This document shows positions 10,969 to 30,303 of a DNA stretch of 64,000 bases, piece after piece. The notes beneath the pieces are model-generated. The model did not search any database, was not told the origin of the DNA, and saw only the letters and a program-made list of their open reading frames with translations. The position numbers and the translations under genes were made by a program. Numbering within the stretch: the stretch's first letter is position 1; each line of letters opens with the position of its first letter. The stretch spans positions 32,001 through 96,000 of the IMG/VR virus record IMGVR_UViG_3300025117_000036, one strand, 5' to 3'. Source of the DNA: a virus.

Positions 10969-10996
10969 TAAAAAGAAAGTTTTATAAGGAGATAAA

Positions 10997-11194: not shown

Positions 11195-11216
11195 AACTTT
11201 TATAGGAGAAAACATT

Positions 11217-11719: not shown

Positions 11720-11741
11720 AAGAAAGGTTTTATAAATAAAA

Positions 11742-12226: not shown

Positions 12227-13941
12227 ACTACAAACTAATCAATAAAGTACCAGAAGATAAAAAAAACATTTTATCAGTTGCCGAACAGATTTTATATAAT
12301 CGAGGAATTGAGAATCCTGATCTATATATGAGTTTGACAGATAAAAATTTATATCCATATAGTTTATTAGATAATATAGATGATGCAGTAAAGGTTTTAC
12401 TACGTCATATCGAAGAAGAAAACACAATCGGAATAATTAGCGATTCTGATGCTGATGGCTATTGTTCTGCCAGTATTCTATTTCAATATTTATCTGAAAT
12501 TTATGATGTAAATAAGATTCTTTATTTTATTCATACCAAAAAACAACACGGTATCAGTTACGATATTCAAATTCCTAATAATGTAAAACTACTTTTTATT
12601 CCTGATGCTGGATCAAACGATGTAGATGAAGCGAAAGTATTGAAAGAAAAAGGAATTGACATAATTTGTTTAGATCATCATGAAAAAAGCAAAGAAAATC
12701 CTTATGCTATTATTATCAATCCTAAATGGTGCGAATATCCAAATAAAGAACTTTCAGGAACAGGAGTTGTTTGGAAGTTTCTGCAAGCTATTGATGATGA
12801 ATTATGGGAAAACAGGTCAGATAAATATTTAGATATTGTTGCATTGTCCATTATTGGAGATGGGATGGACATTAGGGAATTCGAGAACAAGCGTATTATT
12901 GATAAGGGTTTATCTGATATCAAAAATAAATTTCTTAATGCTCTCATAGAAAAACAATCTTATAGCATCGGTGGCATTGTAAATATTATTAATATTCAGT
13001 TTTATATAGTCCCTTTAATTAATGGGCTAATTAGAAATTCTACATTTGAAGAAAAAGAATTAATGTTCAAAGCTTTTTGTCAAATGGATGAAGAATTTGA
13101 TTATATGAAAAGAGGAGAAACCGAACCAGTTAAAGAAAATATTTATGCAAGAGTAGCCCGATTATGCGTAAATAACAAAGCTAAACAAGATAGAATTATT
13201 AATAAATCAATTGAAGAAATTACAAAAGATATTGAAAAATATAAATGGGACGATAACAAAGTGTTATTTGTAAAATTTGATGATATTGAAAGTAGTTACG
13301 TGGGCTTAACTGCTATGAAATTAGCGTCTCTTTACTCTAAACCTTGTATCTTATTCAGAGAAACCAATTGGAAACCAGGATTTTACAATGGAAGTGGCAG
13401 AAATATTGATAATTCTCCGATTGAAAATCTAAGAGATTTTGTATTAAATACCGATCTTTTTACAATGGCTCAAGGTCACGCATCGGCATTTGGCTGTGAA
13501 TTTGAAAAAGAAAACATACGAGAAATTATTAGTGTCACTAATGAAATTCTTAAAGATATCGTCTATGAAAAAATATATCCCATCGACTTTGTTTTTAATG
13601 AAGACGAATTATCGCCAGAATTAATAAAAGAATTTGATAAATTAAAAACTTATTGGGGAACTAAAATAAATGAAAGCCTAGTACTGATTAAAAATATTCA
13701 TCTAAATACAGCCAATATTAAATTAGTAGGTAAAGAATCAGATACTTGGAAATATACTATAAACGATGAAATTGAGATTATTAAATTTAAGTGTTCTCCC
13801 GATGATGAAATTATTCGACTACATCAAAAAGATTGGGGTGGAGTAGATATTATTATAGACGCAATTGGAAAGTTAAGTATTTCCGGTTTTAATGGTATAA
13901 TGACTCCGCAATTCAATATAGTGGAATATAACATAACATAA
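12223..13941 (+). CDS. recJ: RecJ-like single-stranded DNA exonuclease (DHH family)
   Basis: DSDADG, PDAG, DHH, LSG.GV, GSGR and GH..AFG motifs. Confidence 0.9.
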   Translation: MNYKLINKVPEDKKNILSVAEQILYNRGIENPDLYMSLTDKNLYPYSLLDNIDDAVKVLLRHIEEENTIGIISDSDADGYCSASILFQYLSEIYDVNKILYFIHTKKQHGISYDIQIPNNVKLLFIPDAGSNDVDEAKVLKEKGIDIICLDHHEKSKENPYAIIINPKWCEYPNKELSGTGVVWKFLQAIDDELWENRSDKYLDIVALSIIGDGMDIREFENKRIIDKGLSDIKNKFLNALIEKQSYSIGGIVNIINIQFYIVPLINGLIRNSTFEEKELMFKAFCQMDEEFDYMKRGETEPVKENIYARVARLCVNNKAKQDRIINKSIEEITKDIEKYKWDDNKVLFVKFDDIESSYVGLTAMKLASLYSKPCILFRETNWKPGFYNGSGRNIDNSPIENLRDFVLNTDLFTMAQGHASAFGCEFEKENIREIISVTNEILKDIVYEKIYPIDFVFNEDELSPELIKEFDKLKTYWGTKINESLVLIKNIHLNTANIKLVGKESDTWKYTINDEIEIIKFKCSPDDEIIRLHQKDWGGVDIIIDAIGKLSISGFNGIMTPQFNIVEYNIT

Positions 13942-13955
13942 GAGCAAAAAATAAA

Positions 13956-16900: not shown

Positions 16901-17141
16901 TAAAGTCATTGTTCAAATATTGCATAATGGAAATCGACAAGACCTAAAAATATCCAAAAAAATATACAATGATCATCCTGTTAGCCCAGGAGATATTTTA
17001 TATTGCAAGTCATTCAAGAAAAAGAACAATGTTCGCAAAAATGAAAATGGCGAATGGGAAGAAATTCCAGATTTATATTCTTGGTGGCTAGAGGTTTATC
17101 ATAAAGTAAAAGAAGATGAAGAGTTAAAAACTGTATCTTGA
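13956..17141 (+). CDS. dnaE: DNA polymerase III alpha subunit (family C)
   Basis: PHP domain (HSHS..S), GRGSA, PDIDF, YQEQ, FNASHS. Confidence 0.95.
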   Translation: MNYINYHSHSSYSNISTPDSTISNQERANRAIELNMSVLSGIEHGWSGRFIEIIELAKQNNLKPLLGTEAYFVKDRLEKDSTNAHVILLAKNENGRKSINRILSEANVTGFYYKPRIDFDLLFSLPQKDVWVTTACIGGIWKYKDEYESVLLHLNNYFKENLFLEVQYHNAPRQIEINKKILELSKKYNIGIVAGMDSHMISSDQSKERDDYLLSRGIKYPDEENWYLDFPSYETAFERFKKQGVLNKGQIADALNNTNIFETVEEYNSIIFDKNNIKLPTLYAKESQSQKDEKLSNLIWKQWEQEKINVPKNKWTLYEKEIQKELDVIIQTKMADYFLLDYEIIQRGKEMGGNITLTGRGSAPSYYISKLLGFTTIDRISAKVRLFPERFISAERIIESKNLPDIDFNLGNPDVFAEAQQEIIGQGHSYQMIAFGTIKTLGAWKLYARISGVDFETANLISEQIQKYEWDLKHAESDDEKDEINIYDYIDEKFHKVYDESVKYLGLVNSVTPHPCAYLLYNQGDIREEFGLIKIKTGNVEHICVCCDGLFAENYKLLKNDLLKVSVVDLIHRIYKRIEIEPHPLPQLIKLCENNEKVWDIYKYGWTIGINQFEQSGTSNRAMKFSPINLSESSAFVAAIRPGFKSNYSQFEARQSFSYGIASLDKILQTEEFPQSYMLYQEQTMAVLAYSGIPISETYDIIKNIAKKRAEKVYKYKEKFLDGMTRKIIRQENIEKIGAEKIAHMTWQIIEDSAFYSFNASHSYSVAGDSLYGAYLKSHYPLFFYEVFLQMMDEDSNKDRLHTAKLEAQQAFNIKFPPLRFKQDNRRISANADTNEITMSLKSIKGFGYKIANDMYYLSTNFHNGDFVDLLLLAEDNSLLSTKFEQLIKLNYFSEFGESKKLYNFYLEFTKGKNRYNHKLTDKTKAKRITELKLIFAFLKDEEYTIQDQVKNELEIIGGIQSCFAIDKRYVCVLELNNKYSPKVIVQILHNGNRQDLKISKKIYNDHPVSPGDILYCKSFKKKNNVRKNENGEWEEIPDLYSWWLEVYHKVKEDEELKTVS

Positions 17142-17166
17142 CTTTCCTCTTCAAATGTGCTATTAT
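17138..17166 (+). promoter_or_regulatory. sigma70/sigmaA-type promoter for recD2
   Basis: TTGACT-17 nt-TATTAT with extended -10 TG. Confidence 0.6.
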
Positions 17167-17231
17167 CTATTATCTAAAAACAACATTAAAAAATAATTTA
17201 ATTCTATTCAATCGTGGGAAAATATAACTAA

Positions 17232-19475
17232 ATGGCAAATCCTGAAATTGTAGAATTTGAAGGTAAAGTTGCTTTCGAAAAATATTATAATGATCAAACA
17301 TCATGGGGGGCATATTCCGTTAATTCAAAAACAGATATTCCTCATTGTAAAAACATTGAATATACTGATTATATGACTGACCAGGAAATTATAGAATACC
17401 AAGTTAATCTTTCTGGTAAAATGCAAAGATTGATTGAAGGTATGACTTATACTTTTAAAGCAAAGGCAGTAAACAATAGCAAATATGGTTGGGGATATGA
17501 GCCTATCAGCATATCTCAAGATTTACCTAAAACAGATAAAGAACAATTTCAATTTTTAAGTTCAATTGTTGCTCATGATCAAGCACGAACATTGCTTAAT
17601 ATTTATCCAAACATTGTAGAAGAAATTATTAGCGGTACTGATTGTGTTGACCTGTCATTGACAAAAGGTATTAAAGAAAAAACCTACGATAAAATTAAAC
17701 AAAAAGTTTTAGAAAATTATGCGTTTGCGGATATTATTTCTTTGCTTGCTCCATTGGGAATCAGTTTCAATACGGTTCATAAACTACTAAATTTTCAATC
17801 TAATGTTGAATTATTAAAACAACAATTAATTGACGACCCTTATATAATTACTCAGATTGACGGTATTGGCTTTAAAAAAGCAGACGATGTTGCTTTGAAA
17901 ATTAATCCATCGTTATTAATTTCAGAACAAAGAGTAAAATCTTTTATTAAATATTATTTACAAGAAATAGGAAGTAATGATGGGCACACTTGGATTTTGA
18001 TAGATGAACTAAAAACAGCAATTAAAGAAAATTTAATTGAATGTGAAGATATCTTTAAATTATTTATTAAAAAAGAACAAGAAAATAAAACATTTTTATA
18101 TTTTGAGAATGATAAAGTTGGTTTAAATTATTTTCATTTCGTAGAACAAGAAATCTGGAGAATGATTCAGGAATTTAATAAATCAGACCCTCTCTATATT
18201 TCTAAAGAAGATATTGACGCTGGCATTTTAGATGCAGAAAAAGAATTGGGTCAAGACAAAAAAGAACAATTTCATTATAGCGATGAGCAAAAAAAATTTT
18301 TAATAAAACTTACTAAAAACAATTTTTCAATTTTAACAGGGAAAAGCGGGGTTGGAAAAACATCGCTTACTAGAGGACTATTTAAAATTTATGGAAATTA
18401 TAATATTGGGGCTTGCTCTCTTTCAGCTAAAGCCTCACGGCGTATTACCGAAGTTACCGGACAGCCAGCATATACAATTCATAAACTTTTAGGAAGCAAG
18501 GGGCCAAATGAATTTACTTACAATGAATATAACAAATTGCCCTATGATATTATAATTGTAGATGAAATTTCATTATGCTTTTCTGGTTTATTTTATCATC
18601 TTATTTCTGCCATTAAAGACAATGCTAAAATCGTTTTAGTTGGCGATTCTGGTCAACTAAACCCTATATCGTGGGGAAACCTATTGGTGGATTTACTCGA
18701 AAAAAAAGATTTAAATATCTGTTATTTGACTAAAATTCAACGACAAGCCGCGGCAAGTGGAATTATATCTTCTGCAAACTTAATTCGAGAAGGAATTGAT
18801 CCTCTAAATAATGAAAAAACATTTAAAAAAGTTTACGGAGAACTTCAAGATATGTACTTTATGTTTAGAGAAAAAAAAGAAGAATTATTTACCATTGCAG
18901 TAAAAACATATTTAAAAACTGTAGAGAAAATTGGATTAGACGATACATATTTAATTACTCCTCGCAAAGAGTGTGATCCAAATAGTACTTATACTTTTAA
19001 TAAAACAATTCAGGATATATTGCTTGATGATACTTTACCATATGTAAAATTTGGAAAAAAGTCTATTTTTAAATTGGGAGCAAAAGTTATTCATCGTGTC
19101 AACAATTATGATTTAGGAGTTACAAATGGGGAACAGGGATATGTAGTAAAAATTAAAAACATGGGCAAAGATGGCGGCGACGGATTAGTTGTTGAATATC
19201 CTGATAAAATAATTGAATATACCAAAGAAAATTTAAAAGAATTACATTTAGCTTATGCAATTACGGTACACTCTGCACAGGGAAGTGAAGCACATACTTG
19301 CATTGTCGTACTTGATTCTAATTCTTTTGTTCTTCTCAATAACGCATTATTATATACTGCAATTACTCGTAGTAAATCTCGCTGTTTATTGCTTTCTCAG
19401 CCATTTGCATATAATAGGTGCGTATCAACAAATGTCGGAAATAAAAGGAATACTTGGACTCAATTTTTTGAATAA
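17232..19475 (+). CDS. recD2: RecD2-like SF1B helicase
   Basis: HhH N-terminus, GKSGVGKT, TIHKLL, VDE, VGD..QL, AYAITVHSAQGSE, LLYTAITR. Confidence 0.9.
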   Translation: MANPEIVEFEGKVAFEKYYNDQTSWGAYSVNSKTDIPHCKNIEYTDYMTDQEIIEYQVNLSGKMQRLIEGMTYTFKAKAVNNSKYGWGYEPISISQDLPKTDKEQFQFLSSIVAHDQARTLLNIYPNIVEEIISGTDCVDLSLTKGIKEKTYDKIKQKVLENYAFADIISLLAPLGISFNTVHKLLNFQSNVELLKQQLIDDPYIITQIDGIGFKKADDVALKINPSLLISEQRVKSFIKYYLQEIGSNDGHTWILIDELKTAIKENLIECEDIFKLFIKKEQENKTFLYFENDKVGLNYFHFVEQEIWRMIQEFNKSDPLYISKEDIDAGILDAEKELGQDKKEQFHYSDEQKKFLIKLTKNNFSILTGKSGVGKTSLTRGLFKIYGNYNIGACSLSAKASRRITEVTGQPAYTIHKLLGSKGPNEFTYNEYNKLPYDIIIVDEISLCFSGLFYHLISAIKDNAKIVLVGDSGQLNPISWGNLLVDLLEKKDLNICYLTKIQRQAAASGIISSANLIREGIDPLNNEKTFKKVYGELQDMYFMFREKKEELFTIAVKTYLKTVEKIGLDDTYLITPRKECDPNSTYTFNKTIQDILLDDTLPYVKFGKKSIFKLGAKVIHRVNNYDLGVTNGEQGYVVKIKNMGKDGGDGLVVEYPDKIIEYTKENLKELHLAYAITVHSAQGSEAHTCIVVLDSNSFVLLNNALLYTAITRSKSRCLLLSQPFAYNRCVSTNVGNKRNTWTQFFE

Positions 19476-19515
19476 TAATAGTAGTAAGTAAAGGAAGATT
19501 AAATAATATATAAAC

Positions 19516-20265
19516 ATGAATAAATTTAAAGATTTAACTGGACAAAAATTCGGAAAATTAACAGTAATCAAAAGAGTTATTATAAATAAAAATAACAAGA
19601 ATATTCCCAAATGGTTATGTAAGTGTGAGTGCGGAAATGAAAATTTTCTAGCCACGGCAGGAAATTTAATAAATGGACACACTAATTCTTGTGGATGTCA
19701 AAGAAGAGTTTTATCTTCTCAGAGAAATCGAAGATATAATAAATATGATTTATCAAATAATTATGGAATTGGGCATACGTCAAATGGAAAAATTTTCTCA
19801 TTTGACTTAGAAGATTATGATTTAATTAAAAATTATTGTTGGTTTTATATGGGAGATGGATACTTATCAACAAATATTCCAGGTACTTATCCGCGTCCTC
19901 AAATATTAATGCATAGATTAATTATGGGAGTTAAAAACAATATTGAAATTCATATAGATCATATTAATAAAAATAGGGGGGATAATAGAAAAGAAAATCT
20001 AAGATTTGCTACGCCCTTGCAAAATTCTTGGAACAGATCAACTCCTGTTAATTGTAAAACCGGAATTTCGGGTGTCTGTAAAAATACCAAGAGTGAAATA
20101 ATGATTTATCGAGCATATATTACTGTAAACAAAAAATGGATACATTTAGGTATATTTAATAATTTAAAAGAAGCAATTATTGCACGCTTAAAAGCAGAAC
20201 TAGAATATTTTGGAAAAGATTTTGCCCCTCAACGTCATCTTTTTGAGAAATACAATATATTTTAA
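19516..20265 (+). CDS. free-standing HNH endonuclease with C-terminal AP2-like domain
   Basis: DLTGQKFG..W.C.CECG; MHR.I...DHIN....DNRKENLR; HLG.F....A..AR..AE. Confidence 0.85.
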   Translation: MNKFKDLTGQKFGKLTVIKRVIINKNNKNIPKWLCKCECGNENFLATAGNLINGHTNSCGCQRRVLSSQRNRRYNKYDLSNNYGIGHTSNGKIFSFDLEDYDLIKNYCWFYMGDGYLSTNIPGTYPRPQILMHRLIMGVKNNIEIHIDHINKNRGDNRKENLRFATPLQNSWNRSTPVNCKTGISGVCKNTKSEIMIYRAYITVNKKWIHLGIFNNLKEAIIARLKAELEYFGKDFAPQRHLFEKYNIF

Positions 20266-20285
20266 TGAGTATTATTTCTCTCTTG

Positions 20286-20393
20286 ACTCGTGGCAAAAAA
20301 CGAGTATTATTATTGGCAGAACCTTTTGCTTATAATAAAGCGATTAAAGAAAACAAAACAAACAATCGACAAACTTGGATTAAATATTTATAA
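20286..20393 (+). pseudogene. orphan duplicate of the recD2 3' end
   Basis: Translates to TRGKKRVLLLAEPFAYNKAIKENKTNNRQTWIKYL*, which aligns with the RecD2 end TRSKSRCLLLSQPFAYNRCVSTNVGNKRNTWTQFFE. Confidence 0.8.
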
Positions 20394-20407
20394 TTGGAGA
20401 AATAAAA

Positions 20408-21520
20408 ATGCGTAAACTTGCATCTATTCAAAAAATTATTTCATTATCTCCCATTCCTAATGCCGATAAGATTGAAAAAGCCATTGTATTAGGTTGGGAA
20501 GTTGTAGTTGCCAAATCAGAAAATTTCAAAGTTGGAGATTTGGTAGTTTACATCGAAATTGATTCCATTGTTCCACCCAAACCAGAATTTGAATTTCTTA
20601 AAGATCGTAAATATAGAGTGCGAACTATTAAGCTACGTCAACAGGTATCGCAAGGTTTAATCTTGCCTCTTTCTATTCTTCCACGAGGAAAATATCAAGA
20701 AGGAGATGATGTTACCTCCATACTAAATATTAAAAAATATGATCCTGAGGGAGAAGCAGAACAAAAATTACTAAATGAAAAACTTTCTCGAAATAAAAAT
20801 AAATTATCCAAATTCCTTTTGCGATATTCTTGGTATAAAAGATTATTGTTTCTATTCTTCCCCAAGAAAAATAAATCTTTTCCATCATTTATCAAAAAAA
20901 CAGATGAAGATAGAATCCAACTATTTCCCGATATCTGTGAAAGAGAAAGAGATACTAAGTTTTCTATTACTGAAAAAATTGACGGTCAATCCGCAACTTA
21001 TTTCTTAGTTAAAAATAAATCTAAACTTTCATTTTTTCAAAAAAATAAATATCTATTTGGGGTTTGCAGTCGAAACATTTATCTTCCTAAACTTGATAAT
21101 AGTTCTTATTGGAGCATTGCCAAAAAATATAACCTACAAGAAGCATTAGAGAAAATAATCAAAGACATTAGTATGGATTATGATTATATAATTCTGCAAG
21201 GTGAAATCATTGGCCCTAATATTCAAGGCAATAAATATAAGGTTGAAGATTATGATTTTTATGCATTTAATTTAATTTTGCCAGATAGAAATATTGAGAG
21301 TGGAAGTGCAAAGTTTATGTTGGATTCATACAATATAAAATTTGTTCCAATTTTGGATCATCGCAATTTGCTATCATCTATTCCTGAAATGGTTGAATAC
21401 TCAAAGGGTAATTCATTAATTGGTGATACCAAACGTGAAGGAATTGTTTGTAGAAGTTATCAAAAAGGAATTAGTTTTAAAGTAATTAATCCTGAATTTT
21501 TATTGAAATATGAGGTATAA
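20408..21520 (+). CDS. RNA ligase, DRB0094-type
   Basis: MRKLASIQKI..PI.NAD.IE OB-like N-terminus, SQGL, KTDE.R.Q, EKIDG, GE..G..IQGN, REG.V, SFKVI. Confidence 0.85.
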   Translation: MRKLASIQKIISLSPIPNADKIEKAIVLGWEVVVAKSENFKVGDLVVYIEIDSIVPPKPEFEFLKDRKYRVRTIKLRQQVSQGLILPLSILPRGKYQEGDDVTSILNIKKYDPEGEAEQKLLNEKLSRNKNKLSKFLLRYSWYKRLLFLFFPKKNKSFPSFIKKTDEDRIQLFPDICERERDTKFSITEKIDGQSATYFLVKNKSKLSFFQKNKYLFGVCSRNIYLPKLDNSSYWSIAKKYNLQEALEKIIKDISMDYDYIILQGEIIGPNIQGNKYKVEDYDFYAFNLILPDRNIESGSAKFMLDSYNIKFVPILDHRNLLSSIPEMVEYSKGNSLIGDTKREGIVCRSYQKGISFKVINPEFLLKYEV

Positions 21521-21525
21521 TAAAA

Positions 21526-21714
21526 ATGACTGAAATAGAAGTTCTTAATAACATGGCTACTAGCTTACGTGATATCAGTATAAATTTACAAACAATAACG
21601 GTTCTTTTATTTTTATTTTTAGTTTTCAAAAATATGGGCACATCCAGTTCTGTTCTTTCTGATATATCTCATCATCTTAAACAAATTTATCTTTTATTAA
21701 AAAATAAAAACTAG
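21526..21714 (+). CDS. small membrane protein
   Basis: 62 aa with one hydrophobic segment. Confidence 0.55.
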   Translation: MTEIEVLNNMATSLRDISINLQTITVLLFLFLVFKNMGTSSSVLSDISHHLKQIYLLLKNKN

Positions 21715-21725
21715 GAGATATTATA

Positions 21726-22052
21726 ATGATTAAACAAGAAGAACTATTTAATCGAGAAATCGTTGATGTTATAGCCAAAATTTATTTTCCATATGTTCGA
21801 GTGTGGCAGTACCAATATGGTACTCCTGAATATTGGAAGCAACTTGAAAGAAAATTAAATTCAGAAATTGATGAATTTGAAAGTTTCATTCGAGATCATA
21901 GGAGTAGAGATACCTATCAGATAAGTACAGAAAAAAAATATGTATTATTGTGTAAATTTTGTGGATATGAATACCCTGATGATTTTAAGGGAATTCCAGA
22001 TTGTTGTGATGAAATTATTGAAGCACAAAATATTAAAATTGAGAGTATATAA
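21726..22052 (+). CDS. hypothetical protein
   Basis: 108 aa, AGGAG RBS, CxxC...CC. Confidence 0.65.
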   Translation: MIKQEELFNREIVDVIAKIYFPYVRVWQYQYGTPEYWKQLERKLNSEIDEFESFIRDHRSRDTYQISTEKKYVLLCKFCGYEYPDDFKGIPDCCDEIIEAQNIKIESI

Positions 22053-22075
22053 TAAATAAAAGGAGATTTTTAAAA

Positions 22076-22441
22076 ATGTGTAATTGTGTATATTGTGTAA
22101 ATCGCGAAAATCGTACAAATTTTTTTAATCAACTATTGCAAGAAAAAGAACTTCGCTATCATAATCTTTTCGTTACTATATTAGGCGAATTTGATTTCGT
22201 TAAGGTTTCTAATGTAATGGATTGTTTAAATTGGAAATGGGCAGGGTCTAAAAATCCTCCTACATTATCCGAAATGGTAGAATTTTGTAGTGATTTGTTT
22301 GCCAGTTGTTTGAAAGATTATCTATCTAATGAAGATACAAAATATGTTTCTACCGAATGTGGTGGATTTGAAGTTACCATTCGGAAAAATTTTGTAGGAT
22401 TAAAATTTGTAGTTACATCTTGGGAAGAACCAGTAGAATAA
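22076..22441 (+). CDS. hypothetical protein
   Basis: 121 aa, AGGAG RBS, FDF.KV..VM..L.W.W motif. Confidence 0.65.
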   Translation: MCNCVYCVNRENRTNFFNQLLQEKELRYHNLFVTILGEFDFVKVSNVMDCLNWKWAGSKNPPTLSEMVEFCSDLFASCLKDYLSNEDTKYVSTECGGFEVTIRKNFVGLKFVVTSWEEPVE

Positions 22442-22468
22442 TTTATAGATTTATAATACTATAAAAAT

Positions 22469-23056
22469 ATGATTTCATTATCGTCTATTGTTGGAAAAAA
22501 TGAAGATTTAATTCCTCACGCTATAAATCTCTACGCTAAAGAAGGTGATACTGTAGCAGATGTAACTTTTGGAATGGGTAATTTTTGGAAGAAAATTGAT
22601 ACAAATATTTACAAATTTTTTCCAAGCGATATGAAAACGGGAATAGACTTTAGAAATCTACCATATAAAAATAATTCTATCAATGCATTAATCTTAGACC
22701 CGCCTTATTTACATGGCTCTCCCGCACCAATAAAAGAGGAATACGATAAAACATATCTGAACAATAAAAAGGGGGGTTGGGGTGCAGACTATGTTTATCA
22801 ACTTTATTTTGACGGTATGAAAGAAGCACATAGAGTACTTGCTAAAAAAGGGATTCTTATGGTAAAATGTCAAGATCAAGTTGAGAGTGGTAAAAATCGT
22901 TTTGATCATATCGTCATTTATAATCAAGCAATGGAGTTAGGATTTACCGCAGAAGATTTATTCATTCTTACTAGAATTGGCACTCCAATGATGCGCCACA
23001 AATATCAAAAACATGCTCGAAAAAATCATTCGTATCTTTGGGTTTTTAGAAAGTGA
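22469..23056 (+). CDS. amino-DNA methyltransferase (N6A/N4C)
   Basis: SAM motif DVTFG.G and catalytic DPPY. Confidence 0.8.
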   Translation: MISLSSIVGKNEDLIPHAINLYAKEGDTVADVTFGMGNFWKKIDTNIYKFFPSDMKTGIDFRNLPYKNNSINALILDPPYLHGSPAPIKEEYDKTYLNNKKGGWGADYVYQLYFDGMKEAHRVLAKKGILMVKCQDQVESGKNRFDHIVIYNQAMELGFTAEDLFILTRIGTPMMRHKYQKHARKNHSYLWVFRK

Positions 23057-23065
23057 GAAAATAAT

Positions 23066-23269
23066 ATGGAAGAAAATAATGAAATTGAAAAAAACAATAA
23101 AAAGCATCAACAATATATTGGAGATGGGGTTTATGCTTATTATGATGGTTGGGGAATTAGATTAATAGCAAGAGATTCCGACGAGATAGCAAATGTTATT
23201 TATCTCGAACCAAGAGTTTTAGGCACATTAAATGACTTCTATAAAAGCTGTACTGGAAGATCGGAATGA
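23066..23269 (+). CDS. hypothetical protein
   Basis: YIGDGVYA..DG..I.L...IYLEP.V pattern. Confidence 0.65.
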   Translation: MEENNEIEKNNKKHQQYIGDGVYAYYDGWGIRLIARDSDEIANVIYLEPRVLGTLNDFYKSCTGRSE

Positions 23270-23547
23270 AATTCAGATTTCATATTGAAAATTGTATCGG
23301 GCCTTGGCTATCATTGGGCTTTCATATAGATTTCAAAAATCTATATGCTGATATTCACTTTCTTTGGTGGATTATTTCTTTCGGAAATTTATATTGGCTA
23401 GACAACGCTATAAATAATAGACTTGGCCCGAATCTAAGTACGGTGACAACAGAATTGACCATTCTTACAGATTGTCCTAAGTGTGGTTATGAATATGAAA
23501 TTTATCAAGATTTAAAAGATGTTTTAGAGATTGAAAGATATAAATAA
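23266..23547 (+). CDS. hypothetical protein
   Basis: 93 aa, CPKCG, ATGA overlap. Confidence 0.55.
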   Translation: MKFRFHIENCIGPWLSLGFHIDFKNLYADIHFLWWIISFGNLYWLDNAINNRLGPNLSTVTTELTILTDCPKCGYEYEIYQDLKDVLEIERYK

Positions 23548-23609
23548 AAGTAAAATTTTATGAAGATAAGAAATAAAAAAAGGTAGCAGTAAAAGGGCTT
23601 TGTTGATTT

Positions 23610-24269
23610 ATGGCAATAGTACAAACCGAAGCATATTGGAAAGAACAAGAACAAAAATTAATTGAAAAATTAAACAATATAGATTTATCATCAAATACTA
23701 CGAGAATATATTGCCTTGGTGATTGCTATACCTATGGAACAGGTATAAAATCTTGGATGAATTATCCCAATAAATTACAATATGAATTGGGAAAAAATTA
23801 CGAAGTTTATAATTTAGGGCGAACTATGATTACAATGGCTACAATTTTAGAATATAATAATTTATTTTCAAAAATTACAGAAGATAAAAATTCTATTGTA
23901 ATTTTATGGGCGGGAACAAATGATATAGCATTAAAAGATGATGTGGATATGGTATATCATTATTTTTCTAGCTATTGTAAAAAGCTAAGAGAATGTGATA
24001 TAATTACTATTGGAATAACAATGTTACCCAGGATTGTCAGAGGATTAAACATAGAGCCTCTTCGAATACTTTTCAATAGAATAATTTACGAAAATAGAAA
24101 AGAATATGCTGATTACATATTAGACGTATCTAAAATTACAGAAATTGGCATTGAACAAACACCGAAATATTATTTAATGGATGAAACCCACTTAAACGAA
24201 GAAGGTTATGAATTTATATATAATCCATTAGCAAATTTAATAAAGATAATGAATTATAAAATGTGGTAA
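23610..24269 (+). CDS. SGNH/GDSL hydrolase-fold protein
   Basis: CLGDCYTYG (Ser replaced by Cys), GTND, DETH.N.EGY. Confidence 0.7.
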   Translation: MAIVQTEAYWKEQEQKLIEKLNNIDLSSNTTRIYCLGDCYTYGTGIKSWMNYPNKLQYELGKNYEVYNLGRTMITMATILEYNNLFSKITEDKNSIVILWAGTNDIALKDDVDMVYHYFSSYCKKLRECDIITIGITMLPRIVRGLNIEPLRILFNRIIYENRKEYADYILDVSKITEIGIEQTPKYYLMDETHLNEEGYEFIYNPLANLIKIMNYKMW

Positions 24270-24299
24270 ATAAAACTTTAATTTTATGAAGGAACAAAA

Positions 24300-24605
24300 A
24301 TGAGAAAAAAGATTGGTGAAAAAACCGTTATTGAAAGCGAATATATTTACATTTGTGATAATTGCGAAAAGCCATTAGATGAAAAAAATCACATCTTTTG
24401 GGATGGCAGTTGGACAGATGGATACGATTATTTTGCTCAAGAGCGTATTGAAGTTTGTTCATTTTCTTGTCTCAGAGATCAAATAGCTGACTATCTTAAA
24501 GACGAATTTGATATGCTAATTCATGGCTATAACGATGATGATATTCATCTTACCTTTTCCGTATCTCACTTTGATGAACTTTGTAAACTTTTAAACAAAG
24601 AATAA
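24300..24605 (+). CDS. zinc-finger hypothetical protein
   Basis: CDNC...CSFSC. Confidence 0.65.
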   Translation: MRKKIGEKTVIESEYIYICDNCEKPLDEKNHIFWDGSWTDGYDYFAQERIEVCSFSCLRDQIADYLKDEFDMLIHGYNDDDIHLTFSVSHFDELCKLLNKE

Positions 24606-24639
24606 AATAAGATTTTTATGAGGATGAAAGGAAAATAAA

Positions 24640-24906
24640 ATGAAAAATTTATCTGATGTTTCAGAGATTAGAAAAAAATCCATAAGTTATATTTTATTTT
24701 TGCTGGAAAATGAATTAATTCATGCTGTTGCCCAAGGAAAAGATTCTTTCGTTTTTACTATTTCCATAGATTTTACCAGCGATGTCCAAGATACATTACT
24801 AAATGCCAATTATACTTTCAATATTCGACCAGCAATGGAAAAACTATCAGAATTCTCATATGTAAAATCTGATAAATTTGTCGAAATAGAAATTAAATTA
24901 AAATAA
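24640..24906 (+). CDS. hypothetical protein
   Basis: 88 aa, AAGGA RBS. Confidence 0.6.
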   Translation: MKNLSDVSEIRKKSISYILFLLENELIHAVAQGKDSFVFTISIDFTSDVQDTLLNANYTFNIRPAMEKLSEFSYVKSDKFVEIEIKLK

Positions 24907-24931
24907 AAAACTTCTTTTATAAGGAAAATCA

Positions 24932-25141
24932 ATGAGGAAAAGAAAAATGCTAAAAAGTGGAAATTATAGAGGCGAAAAAGTTTTATATCCTGATGGAATA
25001 GGATGCTGTATCTGGCTTGTAATTGACAAAGACGATGAAGATTTTGGATTGGCATTTGATTTTTCATTTGATGAAATAGATGATATAATGAACTTACTTC
25101 AACAAATTAAAGAAACAGAAGCAGATATTTTTGAGGAATAA
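24932..25141 (+). CDS. hypothetical acidic protein
   Basis: 69 aa, AAGGA RBS. Confidence 0.6.
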   Translation: MRKRKMLKSGNYRGEKVLYPDGIGCCIWLVIDKDDEDFGLAFDFSFDEIDDIMNLLQQIKETEADIFEE

Positions 25142-25172
25142 AAGTTTTATTTTATGATATAAAGGATAAAAA

Positions 25173-25364
25173 ATGGAAGATCATATTTTTTTCACAAATG
25201 CACCGAAATATAAAGATTATAGCTGGAATCCAAAAAAAGATATAAGTGCATATGAACTTGCAATATGTCTTCCAGTTCTTCTTTCTCATGATTATAATCT
25301 TTCTGTTTTTATTGAGAAATTACCGGAAGAAGCTAAAAGACATTTTGATGAAATTGACTCATAA
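25173..25364 (+). CDS. hypothetical protein
   Basis: 63 aa; W.PK.DI.AYELA...P.EAKRHF. Confidence 0.6.
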   Translation: MEDHIFFTNAPKYKDYSWNPKKDISAYELAICLPVLLSHDYNLSVFIEKLPEEAKRHFDEIDS

Positions 25365-25385
25365 AATGTACGTTTTATAAAAATC

Positions 25386-25646
25386 ATGCTTAGAATAACC
25401 ATTGATTTAATTCCTTTTGGCGAAGAAAAAAATAAAAAAACAATCTCCACCCTAGAAATAATTAACACTCTTGCAAAAAATCAATTTGAAGAGTATACTT
25501 ATAGTTATAAAGGATGGTGGCAAGATACCGATGATTCTATTCATAAATTTAATGGTAGAGTAGAACACGATAGACGGAATTTTATATATTATCTTTTGTA
25601 TAAAATTATAATTAAGATTATCGAGCCTTTCAAATATATTTTTTAA
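25386..25646 (+). CDS. hypothetical protein
   Basis: 86 aa; MLRITIDLIP.G pattern. Confidence 0.6.
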   Translation: MLRITIDLIPFGEEKNKKTISTLEIINTLAKNQFEEYTYSYKGWWQDTDDSIHKFNGRVEHDRRNFIYYLLYKIIIKIIEPFKYIF

Positions 25647-25666
25647 ATAGAAGGAGAAAATGAATA

Positions 25667-25912
25667 ATGTCTACAATTTTAAGTTATAAAGATTGGAAAG
25701 ACCTAGCAGAAAAGCAAGGACTAAGCAAAGAGCAAGCCCTAGATGTTCTCGCATCTTGGAAAGATGAACGTGTTAAACTCTATGCCGAAATTGAATCATA
25801 TAAAAAAGAAATTTTATCTCTTCGTGATCAATTAGATCATGAAATTATTGAAGATAATCATCCTCGCAAAGGGAAGAAAAAAGGATTAACGGACGACTAT
25901 TATAATGTGTAA
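25667..25912 (+). CDS. hypothetical coiled-coil protein
   Basis: 81 aa, AAGGAG RBS. Confidence 0.6.
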   Translation: MSTILSYKDWKDLAEKQGLSKEQALDVLASWKDERVKLYAEIESYKKEILSLRDQLDHEIIEDNHPRKGKKKGLTDDYYNV

Positions 25913-26066
25913 AAACATCTTTAATTTTAATAATTCTAACGATCCTAATGGCCCTGGAAAAATTCAATTTCCATCAACTTACGATGATGAATTTGAAGAA
26001 GATTCATTTACTGAAACAGAAGAAGTTGAATATTCGGAAATAGACTATGGCGAAGATAAAGCTTAA
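25905..26066 (+). CDS. small highly acidic protein (53 aa, not in ORF track)
   Basis: MCKNIFNF...YDDEFEEDSFTETEEVEYSEIDYGEDKA*. Confidence 0.45.
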   Translation: MCKNIFNFNNSNDPNGPGKIQFPSTYDDEFEEDSFTETEEVEYSEIDYGEDKA

Positions 26067-26192
26067 CCCAACTCAAAATAATATCATTCAACATTTTTTA
26101 ATTTATCTAGATAAAATAGATAAAGCTTGTTGGTAGACAGAAAAAGAATTATATAAAAGAACGATTGAAATTTATAATACGAAGGATAATAA

Positions 26193-26825
26193 ATGAAAAT
26201 TATTAAGCCATATTATATAATCGAAACTCCCATTATTAGCGAAGAAGAAATTTTAGTATTCATTGAAAAAGCGGGTAGAACCGCTTATAAAAGCGAAGAT
26301 CGAATTACATCTGATTCTGCCAAGAAATTTATTGTCAGCATTATCAAAAGCGGTCACGAATCCGTTATTGAGCATTTTACAATTAGTGTAAGATTTATTT
26401 GTGATCGTGGAATTTCACATGAACTTGTACGACATAGAATTGCCAGCTTTACAGAAGTTAGTACGCGATACTGTAACTACAGTAAAGAAAAATTCGGTAA
26501 TGAAATCACAGTTATAAAACCCTTTTTCTGGAATGAAGATTCTATAGAGTATTCTCTTTGGAAAGAACATTGTGAAGACGCAGAACGTACCTATATGATT
26601 TTACTCGAAGAAGGCGCTACGCCAGAACAAGCACGTTCTGTGCTTCCTAATTCATTAAAAACAGAAGTGTTTCAAACTATGAATTTGCGAGAATGGAGGC
26701 ACTTTCTAAAACTTAGAACTTCTAAAAAAGCACATCCTCAAATGCGAGAATTAGTAATTCCATTATTACGAGAATTTCAAAGTGAGTTTCCAACTTTTTT
26801 TGGTGATATAATTATAGAGGAGTAA
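26193..26825 (+). CDS. thyX: flavin-dependent thymidylate synthase
   Basis: GHESVIEH, DRGISHELVRHR.ASF..STRY, ARSVLP, AHPQMR. Confidence 0.95.
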   Translation: MKIIKPYYIIETPIISEEEILVFIEKAGRTAYKSEDRITSDSAKKFIVSIIKSGHESVIEHFTISVRFICDRGISHELVRHRIASFTEVSTRYCNYSKEKFGNEITVIKPFFWNEDSIEYSLWKEHCEDAERTYMILLEEGATPEQARSVLPNSLKTEVFQTMNLREWRHFLKLRTSKKAHPQMRELVIPLLREFQSEFPTFFGDIIIEE

Positions 26826-26830
26826 AAATA

Positions 26831-27448
26831 ATGAAAGACAATCTAACGGAAATTGTATTTATTTTAGATCGAAGCGGTTCTATGCAATCTCTTACCGATG
26901 ATACTATTGGAGGATTCAATTCTTTTATTGATCAGCAAAAAAACGAACCGGGAGAAGCATTACTAACCACTATTTTGTTTGATAGCAAATATGAAATTCT
27001 TCATAATGGAATAAATCTTAAAGACGTAAAACCCATTACAAAAAAGGAATATTACGTTCGTGATACAACCGCTTTACTCGACGCTATTGGGAAAGCAATC
27101 AACGATGTAGGTCATCGTCTTGATAATACAAAAGAAGAAAGTAAACCGTCTCAAGTTATTTTTGTTATTACTACAGACGGTCAAGAAAATTCTAGTAAAG
27201 AATTTACCGCACAACAAATTAAAGAAATGGTTGAACATCAAACTAATGTTTATAATTGGAAATTCGTTTTCCTGGGCGCTAATATGGACGCTGTAGATGT
27301 TGGAAATCAATATGGAATTAGTTATGTCGCTACATATTCTGCAACAACTCGCGGAACTAAAAGCGTTTATTCTACTGTTGCCAACTTGGTAAGCAATAGT
27401 CGCTCATCTGGTGAAATTGATGAAAATTGGTCAACCACAATTGAATGA
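26831..27448 (+). CDS. von Willebrand factor A domain protein
   Basis: MIDAS motif ILDRSGSM, TALLDAIG, TDGQEN.S, FLGAN. Confidence 0.85.
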   Translation: MKDNLTEIVFILDRSGSMQSLTDDTIGGFNSFIDQQKNEPGEALLTTILFDSKYEILHNGINLKDVKPITKKEYYVRDTTALLDAIGKAINDVGHRLDNTKEESKPSQVIFVITTDGQENSSKEFTAQQIKEMVEHQTNVYNWKFVFLGANMDAVDVGNQYGISYVATYSATTRGTKSVYSTVANLVSNSRSSGEIDENWSTTIE

Positions 27449-27600
27449 GTAATAATGCTGATAACTTTGAAAATAACAATATAGAATTTAAACCTCCTGT
27501 AATAGGTGTTTTTCTATTGCTTATTCCAACTATGTGTTTGATCTATACTGTTATTGGAATAATTATTCATTTTTTAATTCATCATTTACATTTATTCTAG
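27445..27600 (+). CDS. small membrane protein (51 aa, not in ORF track)
   Basis: MSNNADNF...VIGVFLLLIPTMCLIYTVIGIIIHFL...*. Confidence 0.45.
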   Translation: MSNNADNFENNNIEFKPPVIGVFLLLIPTMCLIYTVIGIIIHFLIHHLHLF

Positions 27601-27628
27601 ATTATCAATTATTAATTATATTGTTCTC

Positions 27629-27674
27629 TTGACAACAATTTAGCATCGTGTTATTATACCAATAGCACGATGCT
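27629..27674 (+). promoter_or_regulatory. sigma70-type promoter overlapped by an inverted repeat
   Basis: TTGACA-17 nt-TATTAT (extended TG); IR AGCATCGTGTTATT/AATAGCACGATGCT spans the -10. Confidence 0.65.
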
Positions 27675-27719
27675 TACATAATAAAAAGAGTATTTATATA
27701 AAATAATGGAGAAAACATA

Positions 27720-27944
27720 ATGACTAAAAACCCAAAGAAAGTACGAACTTTTTGTATTATTTCAGATGAAGATGGACATAATTATGTTTGCCCTACTGAT
27801 AAAATTGAAGATGCTTATGAATATTTTAAATTTGTTAGTGACGATTTAGTAAATGAAAAATTTGACGAAGAACCAGAATGGCTAGTATTTATTAATGGCC
27901 CGGTCAATAAAGTACATTTTTCTCATTTCGAAATTGAAGATTAA
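27720..27944 (+). CDS. hypothetical protein
   Basis: 74 aa, GGAG RBS. Confidence 0.6.
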   Translation: MTKNPKKVRTFCIISDEDGHNYVCPTDKIEDAYEYFKFVSDDLVNEKFDEEPEWLVFINGPVNKVHFSHFEIED

Positions 27945-27962
27945 TATAAACAGGAAAATATA

Positions 27963-28238
27963 ATGAATAAAAATAATTTTTTATACGTTGTTACAATGTA
28001 TCGTTATGCAAATAAAGAAGAACATTCCTATGTTCTAGGTGTATACGATAACCCCAATGAAGCAATCAAGCATGGAAAAGTAGAAGAATCTTGGCGAGGA
28101 AACAAATATACTTGTGAGGTTCTTCGTCTTAAATTAAATGATACTACCAATGATTTCGATGAAATTATTCTTTCGGTTGAGCGAAATAAAGCCGATGATA
28201 GTATTGCAGAAATGAACTTCTTTGATTGGTGTCCATAA
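27963..28238 (+). CDS. hypothetical protein
   Basis: 91 aa; YVVT.YR....HSY..GV...A......R..KY. Confidence 0.65.
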   Translation: MNKNNFLYVVTMYRYANKEEHSYVLGVYDNPNEAIKHGKVEESWRGNKYTCEVLRLKLNDTTNDFDEIILSVERNKADDSIAEMNFFDWCP

Positions 28239-28239
28239 A

Positions 28240-30303
28240 ATGAAACGTATTTATCGTAATCTAGACTTCGATGATGTTTTAATCAAACCTATTCCTTCTC
28301 AGGTAAATTCTAGAGAAGAAGTAGATATTTCTGTAAAATTATCTGATAATTTTACTTTACAATTTCCTCTAATTGCATCACCTATGCGAGGTATCGTAGA
28401 TGCTAATTTTGCATCTGCATTATCTGACTTGGGAGGCATTGCAATTCTTCATCGTTTTTATAATTCAAAAGATGAATTATATTCTGAATCTAATACTTTA
28501 CTTCAAACAAATAAAAATTTCGGTATGTCAATTGGATTAAACGATAATGATTATATAAGCATCTTAGATCGCTATCAACCCAAAATTTTAGTAGTAGACG
28601 TTGCAAATGGCTATACTGAATCATTATTGTGCTTCTGTGAAGAAATAAAAAAATATATTATCTCTAATAATCTAAACACCCTACTTTGTTCAGGTAATGT
28701 GTGTACTGTGCAAGGAGTAGAGAATTTAAGAAATTCAGGGGTGGACATTGTTAGATTTGGGATTGGGTGTTTTACTAAAGGAACCAGAATTCTCTTATCT
28801 AACGGAACTTATAAAAACATAGAAGATATGATCATTGGAGATAGAATTATCAATAAAAATGGAAATCCTGCAACCGTTAAGAATGTAATATATAATGGAA
28901 AAAAGAACGTTAGAAAAATAAAAACAAATCATTTTTATAAAGAAACATTTGTTACCCCCAATCACAAATATTTATTGGCAAATATAAATCAAGAAAAACT
29001 CGCAAGTAACGGTTATTTATCGGCAATTAAAGATATTGCCTGGAAAGAAATTTGCAATGCAGATAATACTACCGCATTATTTCCTGCCAAAATTAATTTT
29101 GAATTAAAAGATACGTTTTTAATTAATCTTTATAAAAGAAGCGGCGGAAATTGGAGAACCGGATATAATTACGCATTAGATATAAATCTAACGCCCTCCT
29201 ATGAATTGGGTTATATTTTTGGATCGTTCTTAGGAGATGGAAATAGCAATACCCCCTATTATAAAAAATCCCATAGGGGCTTTATTAAATGGTATTTTGG
29301 ATATTCTAAAGATAGAGCAATAAAAAAACTTCCTCTTTGTGTTGAAAAAATATTTAATAAAAAATTAAAAGTTAATAATACTAAAAATACAATAATTTAT
29401 ACATTTAATTATAAACCTTTTGCCGATTTTTTAAAAGAATTTGGCAGTAAAGAAAATAAACAATTACCATCATCTTTACTTGTAAATAATCCTGAATATT
29501 TAAAAGGTATTTATGACGGATTAATTGATTCAGATGGAAATATAGAAAAAAAATCAGATGTAATAACATTTAGCAATACTTCAATATATCTTGGAGAATT
29601 ATTTTCTATCTTGTCATTTTTAATCAATGGGTCGTTACCCGTTGCATATGAAAGAAAAATAACAACGGGATTATCAAATATGAATTTAGAAAATTGTAAA
29701 GATTCCTTTGCATATAAAATATTAAAACAGCCAAATAGGAGAATTTATAATAATAAATATATATTAGTAAAAATTTTAAAAAATGAAACAGAAAACAATG
29801 ATATATTTGAAGATGTATATGACTTAGAAATAGACGACGATACTCATAGCTTTATTGCAAATAATTGTATTGTTCATAATTCTGGAGGTCTATGTACCAC
29901 TCGTCTTGTTACTGGAATTGGAAATCCAAGTATTTCGGCTTTACAAGAAACATCTCAAATAAATGATGTAATTATCTGTATGGATGGAGGAATAAATTCG
30001 AGCGGCAACTTTGTAAAAGCAATTGTGGCTGGTGCAGATTTATGCATGGCAGGATCGATTTTTGGAAAAACTTTCGAAAGCCCTAATGATGGTAGTATAT
30101 TCGGAATGGCGAGTCGTAAATTAAATGAAATGATGTATACTCGAATTAAATCAATTGAAGGAATTGAAAAAACCGTCAAGAAAGAATATTCTCTTGAACA
30201 ATTTGTAGAAGAATTTTCATGGGGAATTAAAAGTGCCGCAACCTATTTGAATGCAAGAAATCTATATGAAATTTGGTTAAATGGAACATTCATTTTAAAA
30301 TAA
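28240..30303 (+). CDS. GMP reductase / IMP dehydrogenase family protein, intein-interrupted
   Basis: LDFDDVL.P, ASPM, GG..ILHR, VDVANG, GNV.T, GIG|SGGLCTTR..TGIG.P, DGGI...G...KA..AGA. Confidence 0.9.
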   Translation: MKRIYRNLDFDDVLIKPIPSQVNSREEVDISVKLSDNFTLQFPLIASPMRGIVDANFASALSDLGGIAILHRFYNSKDELYSESNTLLQTNKNFGMSIGLNDNDYISILDRYQPKILVVDVANGYTESLLCFCEEIKKYIISNNLNTLLCSGNVCTVQGVENLRNSGVDIVRFGIGCFTKGTRILLSNGTYKNIEDMIIGDRIINKNGNPATVKNVIYNGKKNVRKIKTNHFYKETFVTPNHKYLLANINQEKLASNGYLSAIKDIAWKEICNADNTTALFPAKINFELKDTFLINLYKRSGGNWRTGYNYALDINLTPSYELGYIFGSFLGDGNSNTPYYKKSHRGFIKWYFGYSKDRAIKKLPLCVEKIFNKKLKVNNTKNTIIYTFNYKPFADFLKEFGSKENKQLPSSLLVNNPEYLKGIYDGLIDSDGNIEKKSDVITFSNTSIYLGELFSILSFLINGSLPVAYERKITTGLSNMNLENCKDSFAYKILKQPNRRIYNNKYILVKILKNETENNDIFEDVYDLEIDDDTHSFIANNCIVHNSGGLCTTRLVTGIGNPSISALQETSQINDVIICMDGGINSSGNFVKAIVAGADLCMAGSIFGKTFESPNDGSIFGMASRKLNEMMYTRIKSIEGIEKTVKKEYSLEQFVEEFSWGIKSAATYLNARNLYEIWLNGTFILK
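28768..29880 (+). mobile_element. intein with LAGLIDADG endonuclease (371 aa)
   Basis: Begins CFTKGT; block B VTPNH; motifs FGSFLGDG and GLIDSDG; ends VYDLEI...HSFIAN.CIVHN followed by Ser. Confidence 0.92.

Follow-up and report, generated by a model that had tools for sequence, protein, structure and literature searches.

A short palindrome with a 6-bp core, ATAAAA-N6-TTTTAT, recurs at gene junctions in a 64,000-bp stretch of IMG/VR virus record IMGVR_UViG_3300025117_000036 (bases 32001–96000 of the record, hereafter the window, whose numbering is used below). Comparison with related phages showed that each of these joints keeps its place and its own 6-bp core, that genes flanking it on one side or both have been swapped, acquired or lost, and that homology ends at the palindrome edges. 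We interpret the palindromes as fixed, core-addressed DNA joints for the exchange of accessory-gene cassettes, possibly by means of a tyrosine recombinase of the phage, and assign this reading, which is drawn from sequence comparison, a probability of roughly 45%.

The record is a single-contig phage of 121,859 bp with 31% G+C. Plus-strand genes occupy the record up to about 67 kb and from 115 kb onward; the intervening minus-strand block comprises the tail and other virion genes. Replication genes included a DnaE-type polymerase, a RecJ-like exonuclease, a helicase, and a primase. The polymerase is 36–41% identical to those of large Firmicute siphoviruses (Geobacillus E3, Clostridium c-st, phiCD211, and Bacillus pW2), and the genome layout resembles that of Bacillus phage SPbeta, including an integrase-family gene within the tail module. 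Phages of this lineage are uncultivated, originate from groundwater metagenomes and are distant from cultivated relatives. Metagenome runs with DNA of positions 21000–27000 came from groundwater and soil, and no RNA run was among the listed runs holding this part.

The exact palindrome was found 17 times in the window, compared to a mean of 0.32 in 100 dinucleotide-preserving shuffles (maximum 2; none of the 100 shuffles reached 17). With one mismatch permitted, 30 copies were present vs. 5.6 expected. The relaxed form ATRAAA-N6-TTTYAT occurs 44 times in the whole genome, mostly between small plus-strand open reading frames (ORFs), and 38 of the 44 copies are carried by the plus-strand arms of the genome (0.51 per kb vs. 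0.13 per kb elsewhere). All 44 cores are different, chance alone being expected to yield few repeats. A de novo palindrome scan ranked TAAAA-N6 first in this genome (G000), in the two related genomes G001 and G002, and in SPbeta. A functionless motif that arises simply from AT-rich composition combined with TAA stops and U-rich spacers would fit the low G+C content of the genome and the copies in which the core is itself the Shine-Dalgarno (SD) sequence and the right arm runs into an ATG. This explanation was refuted by the shuffles and by reversed-pattern controls (0–7 copies vs. 17–31 for the motif in related large phages; 2 vs. 7 in LW81), the first rank in four de novo scans and the absence of copies from seven related contigs of similar G+C (L006–L012) also argue against it, and its probability is negligible.

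Six exact copies form the tract referred to as array B. An exact scan reproduced the positions and cores given in an earlier note on this DNA: GTAAAA (23544–23561), CTTTAA (24270–24287), TAAGAT (24602–24619), AACTTC (24903–24920), GTTTTA (25138–25155), and TGTACG (25361–25378). As also stated there, no two of these cores are alike, and in five sites the TAA of the left arm is the upstream stop codon, terminating ORFs 23266–23547, 24300–24605, 24640–24906, 24932–25141, and 25173–25364, respectively; at 24270 the site begins one base past the stop (24267–24269) of a GDSL/SGNH hydrolase gene, i.e., directly after it. The five gaps between successive sites hold one plus-strand ORF each. The first contains the GDSL/SGNH hydrolase cassette gene (23610–24269, 219 aa; Pfam PF13472, E 1.9e-14), for which the only homologues found were 95–96% identical ones on short contigs. 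The remaining four hold single-ORF cassettes of 101, 88, 69, and 63 aa (24300–24605, 24640–24906, 24932–25141, and 25173–25364; together spanning 24300–25364) without a family match. Upstream lie the variant joint ATGAAA-TTCAGA-TTTCAT (23266–23283), the TGA of which stops ORF 23066–23269 and the ATG of which starts ORF 23266–23547, the variant joint ATAAAA-ATATGA-TTTCAT (22461–22478), which has the start codon of a methyltransferase gene inside its core, and the one-mismatch copy ATAAAA-GGAGAT-TTTTAA (22056–22073), which the earlier note had already pointed out. The genome-wide copies support its view of array B as a second tract of a larger system. Array A, the other tract, includes a pair of near-identical joints around ORF 9096–9257 (9077–9273), namely ATAAAA-GGAGAG-TTTTAT at 9077 and ATGAAA-GGTAG-TTTTAT at 9257.

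The most informative comparison was with L058, a metagenome contig whose methyltransferase is 93% identical at the amino acid level. It holds all six array-B sites with identical cores in identical order, and the content between the sites differs. Five of the six slots bordered by these sites differ in content, with breaks at the site edges. Three unrelated ORFs (361, 138, and 52 aa) fill the slot of the GDSL gene between the same two joints, the 101-aa ORF is swapped for one of 45 aa, and the 63-aa ORF is replaced as well. The 88- and 69-aa ORFs are retained at 81–88% nucleotide identity, and extra ORFs stand beside the retained 88-, 69-, and 86-aa ORFs. The slots of L058 thus hold one to three ORFs, so that the expectation of exactly one ORF per unit held for the five gaps of the window and failed in this relative.

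Alignment around each site showed that homology with L058 stops at the outer palindrome edge. None of the 36 core bases differed between the window and L058, where alignable neighboring blocks are 81–98% identical. By ungapped comparison, four of the six sites (24270, 24602, 24903, and 25361) have unrelated 40-nt flanks on both sides, with the qualification that the right flank at 24602, scored as unrelated in this way, lies in a gene that BLAST aligned at 81% identity with gaps. The core at 24270 is kept between unrelated flanks, the site at 24903 forms an island with unrelated DNA on both sides, and the site at 25361 has the same core, the right arm TTTCAT and two unrelated flanks. At 23544 identity is 100% in the left flank, and unrelated sequence begins immediately past TTTTAT; at 25138 the left flank is likewise homologous and the right flank unrelated. 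Further upstream, homology begins exactly at the left arm of the 23266 joint, following a 280-nt insertion in L058, and approximately 200 nt of additional sequence is present in L058 at the 22056 copy. The level of identity likewise changes abruptly at the joints: 85%, then 97.7% (23264–23561), then unrelated sequence. Overall, 8 of the 14 ends of homology blocks lie within 12 nt of a site, compared to 0.96 expected (p about 1e-6). Gene junctions were broken in L058 in 7 of 10 cases with a site and in 1 of 7 without (p = 0.05), a count that scores the island at 24270 as unbroken because it is too short for BLAST.

Gain, loss, and replacement of single ORFs between sites were also observed in other relatives. 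Contigs of metagenome runs X10 and X12, from a relative approximately 90–95% identical, join 9086 to 9266 and thereby skip 179 nt, exactly ORF 9096–9257 of array A; the joint has 11 shared letters and its shorter side is 225 letters long. A contig of run X10 ends at 24287, the right edge of the 24270 joint. Other joints seen in metagenome contigs rest on 21–40 letters and are taken as hints only, these short-sided, weak hints including 24290 to 24602 (X10/X12, 23 letters), 9484 to 11186, and 11735 to 12224. Contig L060 has a 59-aa ORF inserted at 22461 with two copies of the 18-bp site around it, the left copy keeping the methyltransferase ATG, which is now without function. Judged from its sequence, this arrangement is what integration of a circle through the site, or the reverse event, would leave behind. 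Precise, site-bounded indels, which the earlier note had proposed to look for, were therefore found in the absence of ORF 9096–9257 from X10/X12, the slot changes of L058, and the L060 insertion.

More distant loci behaved similarly. The motif was present at stop/SD junctions in five IMG/VR contigs with an RNA ligase 61–65% identical to that of this phage (L001–L005), with 9, 22 (in 14.6 kb), 7, 8, and 7 copies, respectively, and had no copies in the seven contigs L006–L012, in which the RNA ligase is 43–57% identical. Contigs L003 and L004 share 99.975% identity over a stretch that begins two bases ahead of one site and runs to the contig end. The preceding ORF is one of 63 aa in one contig and an unrelated one of approximately 81 aa in the other; this swapped ORF is bounded upstream by a shared site with the same core, beyond which the sequences are again unrelated. 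No further close pairs were found among the loci compared. The exact 18-mer of one joint occurred in 15 stretches of viral contigs, i.e., L003, L004, and 13 others (L045–L057). Three of the latter hold 3–4 relaxed-motif copies, and because none of the 13 shows the stop/SD junction context, they were taken as chance matches.

These comparisons bear on the proposal of the earlier note that single-ORF cassettes move between any two sites, as in integrons or Tn916, by an integrase that tolerates unlike crossover sequences. Arrays of promoterless small ORFs, each ending in a site, the presence of tyrosine recombinase genes, and one-ORF indels at sites are all in its favor. Evidence against free recombination between unlike cores comes from the cores themselves, which were kept even with both flanks replaced (0 of 36 bases changed) and so stay with the position and not with the cassette, and from the clean single-ORF indels, which occur between near-identical cores. 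The array-B ORFs had no homologue in L001–L012 or G001–G004, and no array-B gene was seen in a different slot. Slots with up to three ORFs and no internal sites, the lack of any sign of a selected fold in the 18-bp site, unlike attC, and a recombinase nearest to Xer proteins, with a weak match to IntI4, further argue against this explanation, which we consider unlikely. What stands of the original cassette idea is the site-bounded indels and replacements, the site acting at the DNA level, and the genome-wide system; the free recombination of unlike cores, the one-ORF units, and the link to a recombinase were not borne out.

The same type of joint was found in the SPbeta family. SPbeta has 34 copies of TAAAA-N6-TTTTA compared to about 2 expected, and the TAA of the left arm is the stop codon of yoqG, yoqS, yorT, mtbP, yorZ, yosC, yosF, and yosR. 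Between yorM and yosL, phages SPbeta, SPR, phi3T, and Goe12 have a common order of cores (A/GAGTCA, GATCAA or TATCTC, TTTGTC, TATTCC, TTCAAT, GTTTTA, GGATGA) with differing spacing and unrelated content. In 25 orthologous site comparisons, 6 from the lineage of this phage and 19 from that of SPbeta, 3 of 150 core bases differed and 36 of 50 40-nt flanks were non-homologous. Genome-wide, 7 of 70 block ends between SPbeta and phi3Ts were located at a palindrome vs. 0.71 expected (p about 7e-6), and junctions were broken in 11 of 27 cases with a site vs. 29 of 185 without (p = 0.006). The joints are preferred as boundaries between these two phages but are far from the sole ones. In both branches the arms and the 6-bp spacer are the same, the left arm contains the TAA stop, and the joints are fixed and keep their cores. 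The branches differ in that the arms in the lineage of this phage are one base longer (ATAAAA/TTTTAT), allow ATGAAA and TTTCAT variants, and are followed on the right directly by the SD.

The placement of the sites relative to the genes is narrowly defined. Copies occur at junctions of small ORFs of unknown function, and no site was found directly upstream of the primase, RecJ, polymerase, helicase, RNA ligase, ThyX, or ribonucleotide reductase genes. In 14 junctions, positions 2–4 of the left arm are the stop codon, A or G at arm position 3 giving TAA or TGA. Among the 74 sites of three genomes having an SD and a start codon downstream, 46 have an SD that begins 0–1 nt past the right arm, and 43 have their start codon 10–13 nt past it. 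Because the preceding gene takes its stop codon from the left arm and the next gene has its ribosome-binding site past the right arm, an exchange at the joint leaves both genes intact. Some sites form a subclass whose core doubles as the SD (GGAG/GGA) and whose right arm overlaps or adjoins the start codon (TTTYATG), so that stop, SD, and start fit into about 20 bases; members include the copies at 9077 and 8399 and 11799-type copies of the window, and those at 2063, 6170, and 38493 of G001.

This fixed place between stop and SD, always in the sense of the genes, could also suggest an RNA element, with an AU hairpin that couples translation, marks a processing site or binds a translational repressor, and copies of the form ATGAAA...TTTTAT would retain a G-U pair. 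The combinations at arm position 3 were A/T in 36 sites, A/C in 23, G/T in 12, and G/C in 3; A/C thus exceeds both G/U and G/C, and there is no compensatory change. In G001, left- and right-arm variants were even anti-correlated (odds ratio 0.14, p = 0.02). Predicted RNA folds of the six sites, whose arms allow six A-T pairs, had energies of −0.7 to −1.8 kcal/mol, two of the six sequences folded another way, and no Rfam match was obtained at E <= 0.1 in positions 8000–28000. A selected hairpin was rejected on the grounds of no covariation, weak folds, and no Rfam match. The invariant arms moreover point to sequence and not shape, and the conserved cores and edge breakpoints would be left unexplained by an RNA element, for which the odds are very poor.

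A role as promoter or terminator was discarded on the basis of the site logo and of scans at background level. No conserved −35/−10 element was present upstream in the logo of the 74 sites, sigma-70-like matches were not enriched in 19000–29000 (73 vs. 60.7 ± 7.7), and no plus-strand sigma-70 match of at least 11/12 lay within 23544–25378. The terminator scan gave 4 matches vs. 2.8 expected, none of them at sites. These results agree with the earlier claims that the hairpin is too weak for a terminator and that no promoters are evident, and, together with the lack of compensatory covariation, uphold the preference for a site acting at the DNA level. Since the arms are reverse complements and the same variant is tolerated independently on each side, the pattern fits a two-fold symmetric protein that reads duplex DNA.

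In the proposed mechanism, the invariant arms would serve as half-sites for a dimeric DNA-binding protein of two-fold symmetry, and the core would act as an address, with efficient crossing-over only between joints of the same core. Such same-core partners could be equivalent joints of two relatives infecting the same cell, or the duplicate sites that arise when a cassette circle inserts. A rule of core matching would explain the kept cores, the 44 non-repeated cores, and the single-ORF indels between near-identical cores. The likeliest agent would be a site-specific recombinase, as the arm–6 bp–arm geometry matches Xer-type sites and two candidate enzymes are encoded. Extended to SPbeta-type phages in general, in the form that a tyrosine recombinase binds the arms and crosses only same cores in a natural cassette exchange, the proposal becomes more tentative. 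If true, co-infecting relatives would exchange individual accessory genes one slot at a time and acquire cassette circles, with gene order and reading frames kept.

Both candidate enzymes are tyrosine recombinases (PF00589), of 297 and 337 aa, with the catalytic R..HxxRH..H..Y pattern. The 297-aa protein is Xer-like, with a match to XerC-like 4a8e (E 3.5e-22) and Xer proteins as best structural relatives; its match to IntI4 was weak (E 5.7e-7) and covered a short stretch. The gene of the 337-aa protein (49880–50893, minus strand; PF00589, E 3.9e-8) is located in the tail module beside tape-measure pieces, and relatives of this protein were found in 181 phage records. SPbeta (annotated integrase gene yomM) and phi3Ts have an integrase-family gene in a similar place of the tail module, and yomM was not matched in the protein search with the 337-aa recombinase at E <= 1e-5. 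Searches for a serine recombinase (PF00239) and for sigma-70 region 2 gave no match. When 169 proteins of this genome were profiled against two motif-bearing (68–69% complete) and two motif-less relatives, only an HNH endonuclease fitted the motif pattern. It was regarded as a mobile gene and not as a lead. Free-standing HNH endonuclease genes are located at 19516–20265, which encodes this protein, and at 10148–10753.

Several observations weigh against exchange by a dedicated enzyme of the phage. The Xer-like protein had a homologue in one of two motif-bearing relatives (G001; both records 68–69% complete) and in none of three motif-less ones. The 337-aa recombinase was not found (E <= 1e-5) in the motif-rich phages E3, phiCD211, and SPbeta, and was present in SpaA1 and BtCS33, which have two motif copies each. 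In these distributions, neither recombinase tracks the motif cleanly, and both are candidates only. The logo showed little conservation beyond the 5–6 bp of each arm, which is short for a tyrosine-recombinase site. The difference between the cores (3 of 150 bases) and homologous flanks (31 of 560, 5.5%) was not significant and, because the flanks differ at just 5.5%, the excess conservation of the cores is merely suggestive. In the comparison of SPbeta and phi3Ts, 63 of the 70 block ends were not at palindromes. In the laboratory-evolved phi3Ts × SPbeta hybrid Hyb2, both crossovers fall within stretches of 1.4 and 4.9 kb without a base that distinguishes the parents; they are explicable by ordinary homologous recombination, and their exact positions cannot be placed. 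L058 shows a clean replacement of the RNA ligase gene, the junctions of which bear no more than an ATAAAA half-site. Finally, the motif was enriched across phages of many Firmicute genera, which could indicate a host factor or a shared expression signal instead. Copy numbers, with those of the reversed-pattern control in parentheses, were 30 (7) in Geobacillus E3, 31 (7) in c-st, 26 (7) in phiCD211, 28 (1) in pW2, 17 (2) in Perkons, 28 (2) in Leuconostoc phiLM33_01, and 8 (1) in GR1; LW81 was weakly enriched, with 7 (2).

Two of these cases have further features. The RNA ligase gene (20405–21520) has 2.2 kb of other DNA in its place in L058 and is skipped by the X10/X12 contigs, the breaks falling at the very ends of the gene. 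The indistinguishable stretches of Hyb2 (the mtbP gene; nrdE to yosT) end 2–8 nt from palindromes on three of their four sides, the SPbeta palindromes near these ends being at 113664, 115044, and 128077 (loci L065 and L066).

The main competitor is a passive hot spot: an element conserved for punctuation or regulation in early and accessory operons, possibly an operator for a dimeric phage or host protein between stop and SD, would be crossed by general or microhomology recombination, and selection would keep the products in which stop and SD are intact. The palindrome is the only sequence common to otherwise unrelated neighbors, its spacing to SD and start codon is rigid, and SPbeta has an annotated Sak4-like annealing protein. 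The spread of the motif over many Firmicute genera with no cleanly co-occurring recombinase, the location of most natural block ends away from sites, and the Hyb2 crossovers also suit this explanation. Identity islands of just 18–23 bp with unrelated DNA on both sides speak against it, such lengths being below those needed for efficient RecA-type recombination. Furthermore, the site has no sigma-70 promoter or terminator and is absent before core replication genes, and unrelated genes beside the same core would be left unexplained. We consider passive crossing a realistic possibility, and the enzyme-mediated reading was not rated above the probability given at the outset because the recombinases track poorly, the arms are short, and the breadth of the motif may mean a host factor.

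In behavior, the nearest described system is that of the PeSLs (promoter-early stem-loops) of T4-type phages. These repeated elements lie between the stop codon of an ORFan and the SD in hyperplastic regions, where they act like the joints described here (PMC2839356). Their recombination leads to indels, replacements, and mini-circles, and single-ORF circles have been proposed and detected (PMC2839356; PMC4122927). PeSLs are approximately 100 bp long and recombine by homology; each combines a sigma-70 consensus promoter with a terminator stem-loop rich in G+C (PMC2839356; PMC4122927). The likeness is that of a repeated element at stop/SD junctions bounding indels and replacements between close relatives, as found here. 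The anatomy does not fit: the present element has 18 bp, no promoter, no stable stem, and a site-specific 6-bp core that is kept between relatives. The finding is best regarded as a new, much smaller variant of such modular-shuffling-joint elements, one that SPbeta also has.

Three site-specific systems offer further parallels. Xer/dif sites have unlike arms of 11 bp, and the pdif modules of Acinetobacter plasmids are gene modules bounded by such sites. A 6-bp centre, site-bounded gene modules, and a Xer-like recombinase, a candidate partner of the sites, are present in this phage as well. The inverted arms may be comparable; here they are identical, only 5–6 bp long, and bordered by flanks of little information, and the sites are arranged head to tail on one strand at stop/SD junctions. 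Heterospecific lox and FRT sites, used in Cre and FLP engineering, have 13-bp arms and 8-bp spacers, of which only like ones recombine. A cassette flanked by two unlike sites can thus be swapped with the order left undisturbed. By analogy, their identical arms and differing spacers would correspond to the conserved cores around differing content observed here. A natural phage system with exchange of this heterospecific-spacer kind did not turn up in the literature searched. Integron attC sites, imperfect palindromes of 57–141 bp, are recognized as a folded single strand of conserved structure and variable sequence, and require an IntI integrase with an attI platform and a cassette promoter next to it. 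As in this phage, small ORFs without promoters are arrayed one after another, and each ends in an inverted repeat, often overlapping its stop codon. The joints described here differ in being 18 bp long with sequence-invariant arms and no selected fold, and no IntI-type integrase was found.

Within the SPbeta group, the operator SPBRE of MrpR/SroF is another repeated element, and it is bound by a protein with a tyrosine-recombinase fold. It has been described as an asymmetric box of 15–26 bp in about ten promoter regions, with a reader that is a monomer of this fold without recombinase activity (PMC10516654; bioRxiv 10.1101/2025.11.27.690993). The regions upstream of SPbeta target genes identified by chromatin affinity purification sequencing (ChAP-seq) share AATATGTATA in 9 of 10 cases and not the palindrome, and identity of the two elements was rejected, SPBRE being a different, asymmetric motif. 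The 337-aa recombinase also gave no match to the solved MrpR chain. No published description of the palindrome was found in the literature searched, which did not include supplementary files or the SPbeta genome paper of 1999.

How exchange in the mosaic genomes of phages comes to fall neatly between genes is a long-standing question. In the present case, two distantly related branches of one phage group carry a signpost of 16–18 bp at exchange points defined to the base, and one of the branches is represented by SPbeta in Bacillus subtilis, a genetically tractable model. Accessory genes of such phages often include defence and counter-defence genes. Should a site-specific, core-addressed enzyme be at work, the joints would constitute a new route of gene flow for accessory genes and a ready set of orthogonal sites for engineering. 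Should the crossing be passive, the PeSL principle would extend from T4-type phages of Gram-negative hosts to large Firmicute siphoviruses, with a far smaller element.

Some changes in relatives were located away from the palindromes. The 693-aa gene at 28222–30303 has an internal indel, L058 being without approximately 1.1 kb of it (28766 to 29893). At 18059, within a helicase/exonuclease V gene (17232–19475), several contig ends, the end of a homology block of L059, and one joint coincide, and relatives may carry an insertion at this point. In thyX (26193–26825), L058 has approximately 960 nt of extra sequence between 26443 and 26472 with a 520-aa ORF, and the thyX match of L001 falls in two pieces 1 kb apart, which suggests an intron, intein, or homing-endonuclease insertion in relatives. 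The motif-less genome G004 (L037–L044) was enriched in other palindromes, GTTAC-N8-GTAAC (10 copies vs. 0.1 expected) and GTAAC-N6-GTTAC (6 vs. 0.1), and these may represent an analogous system with different arms.

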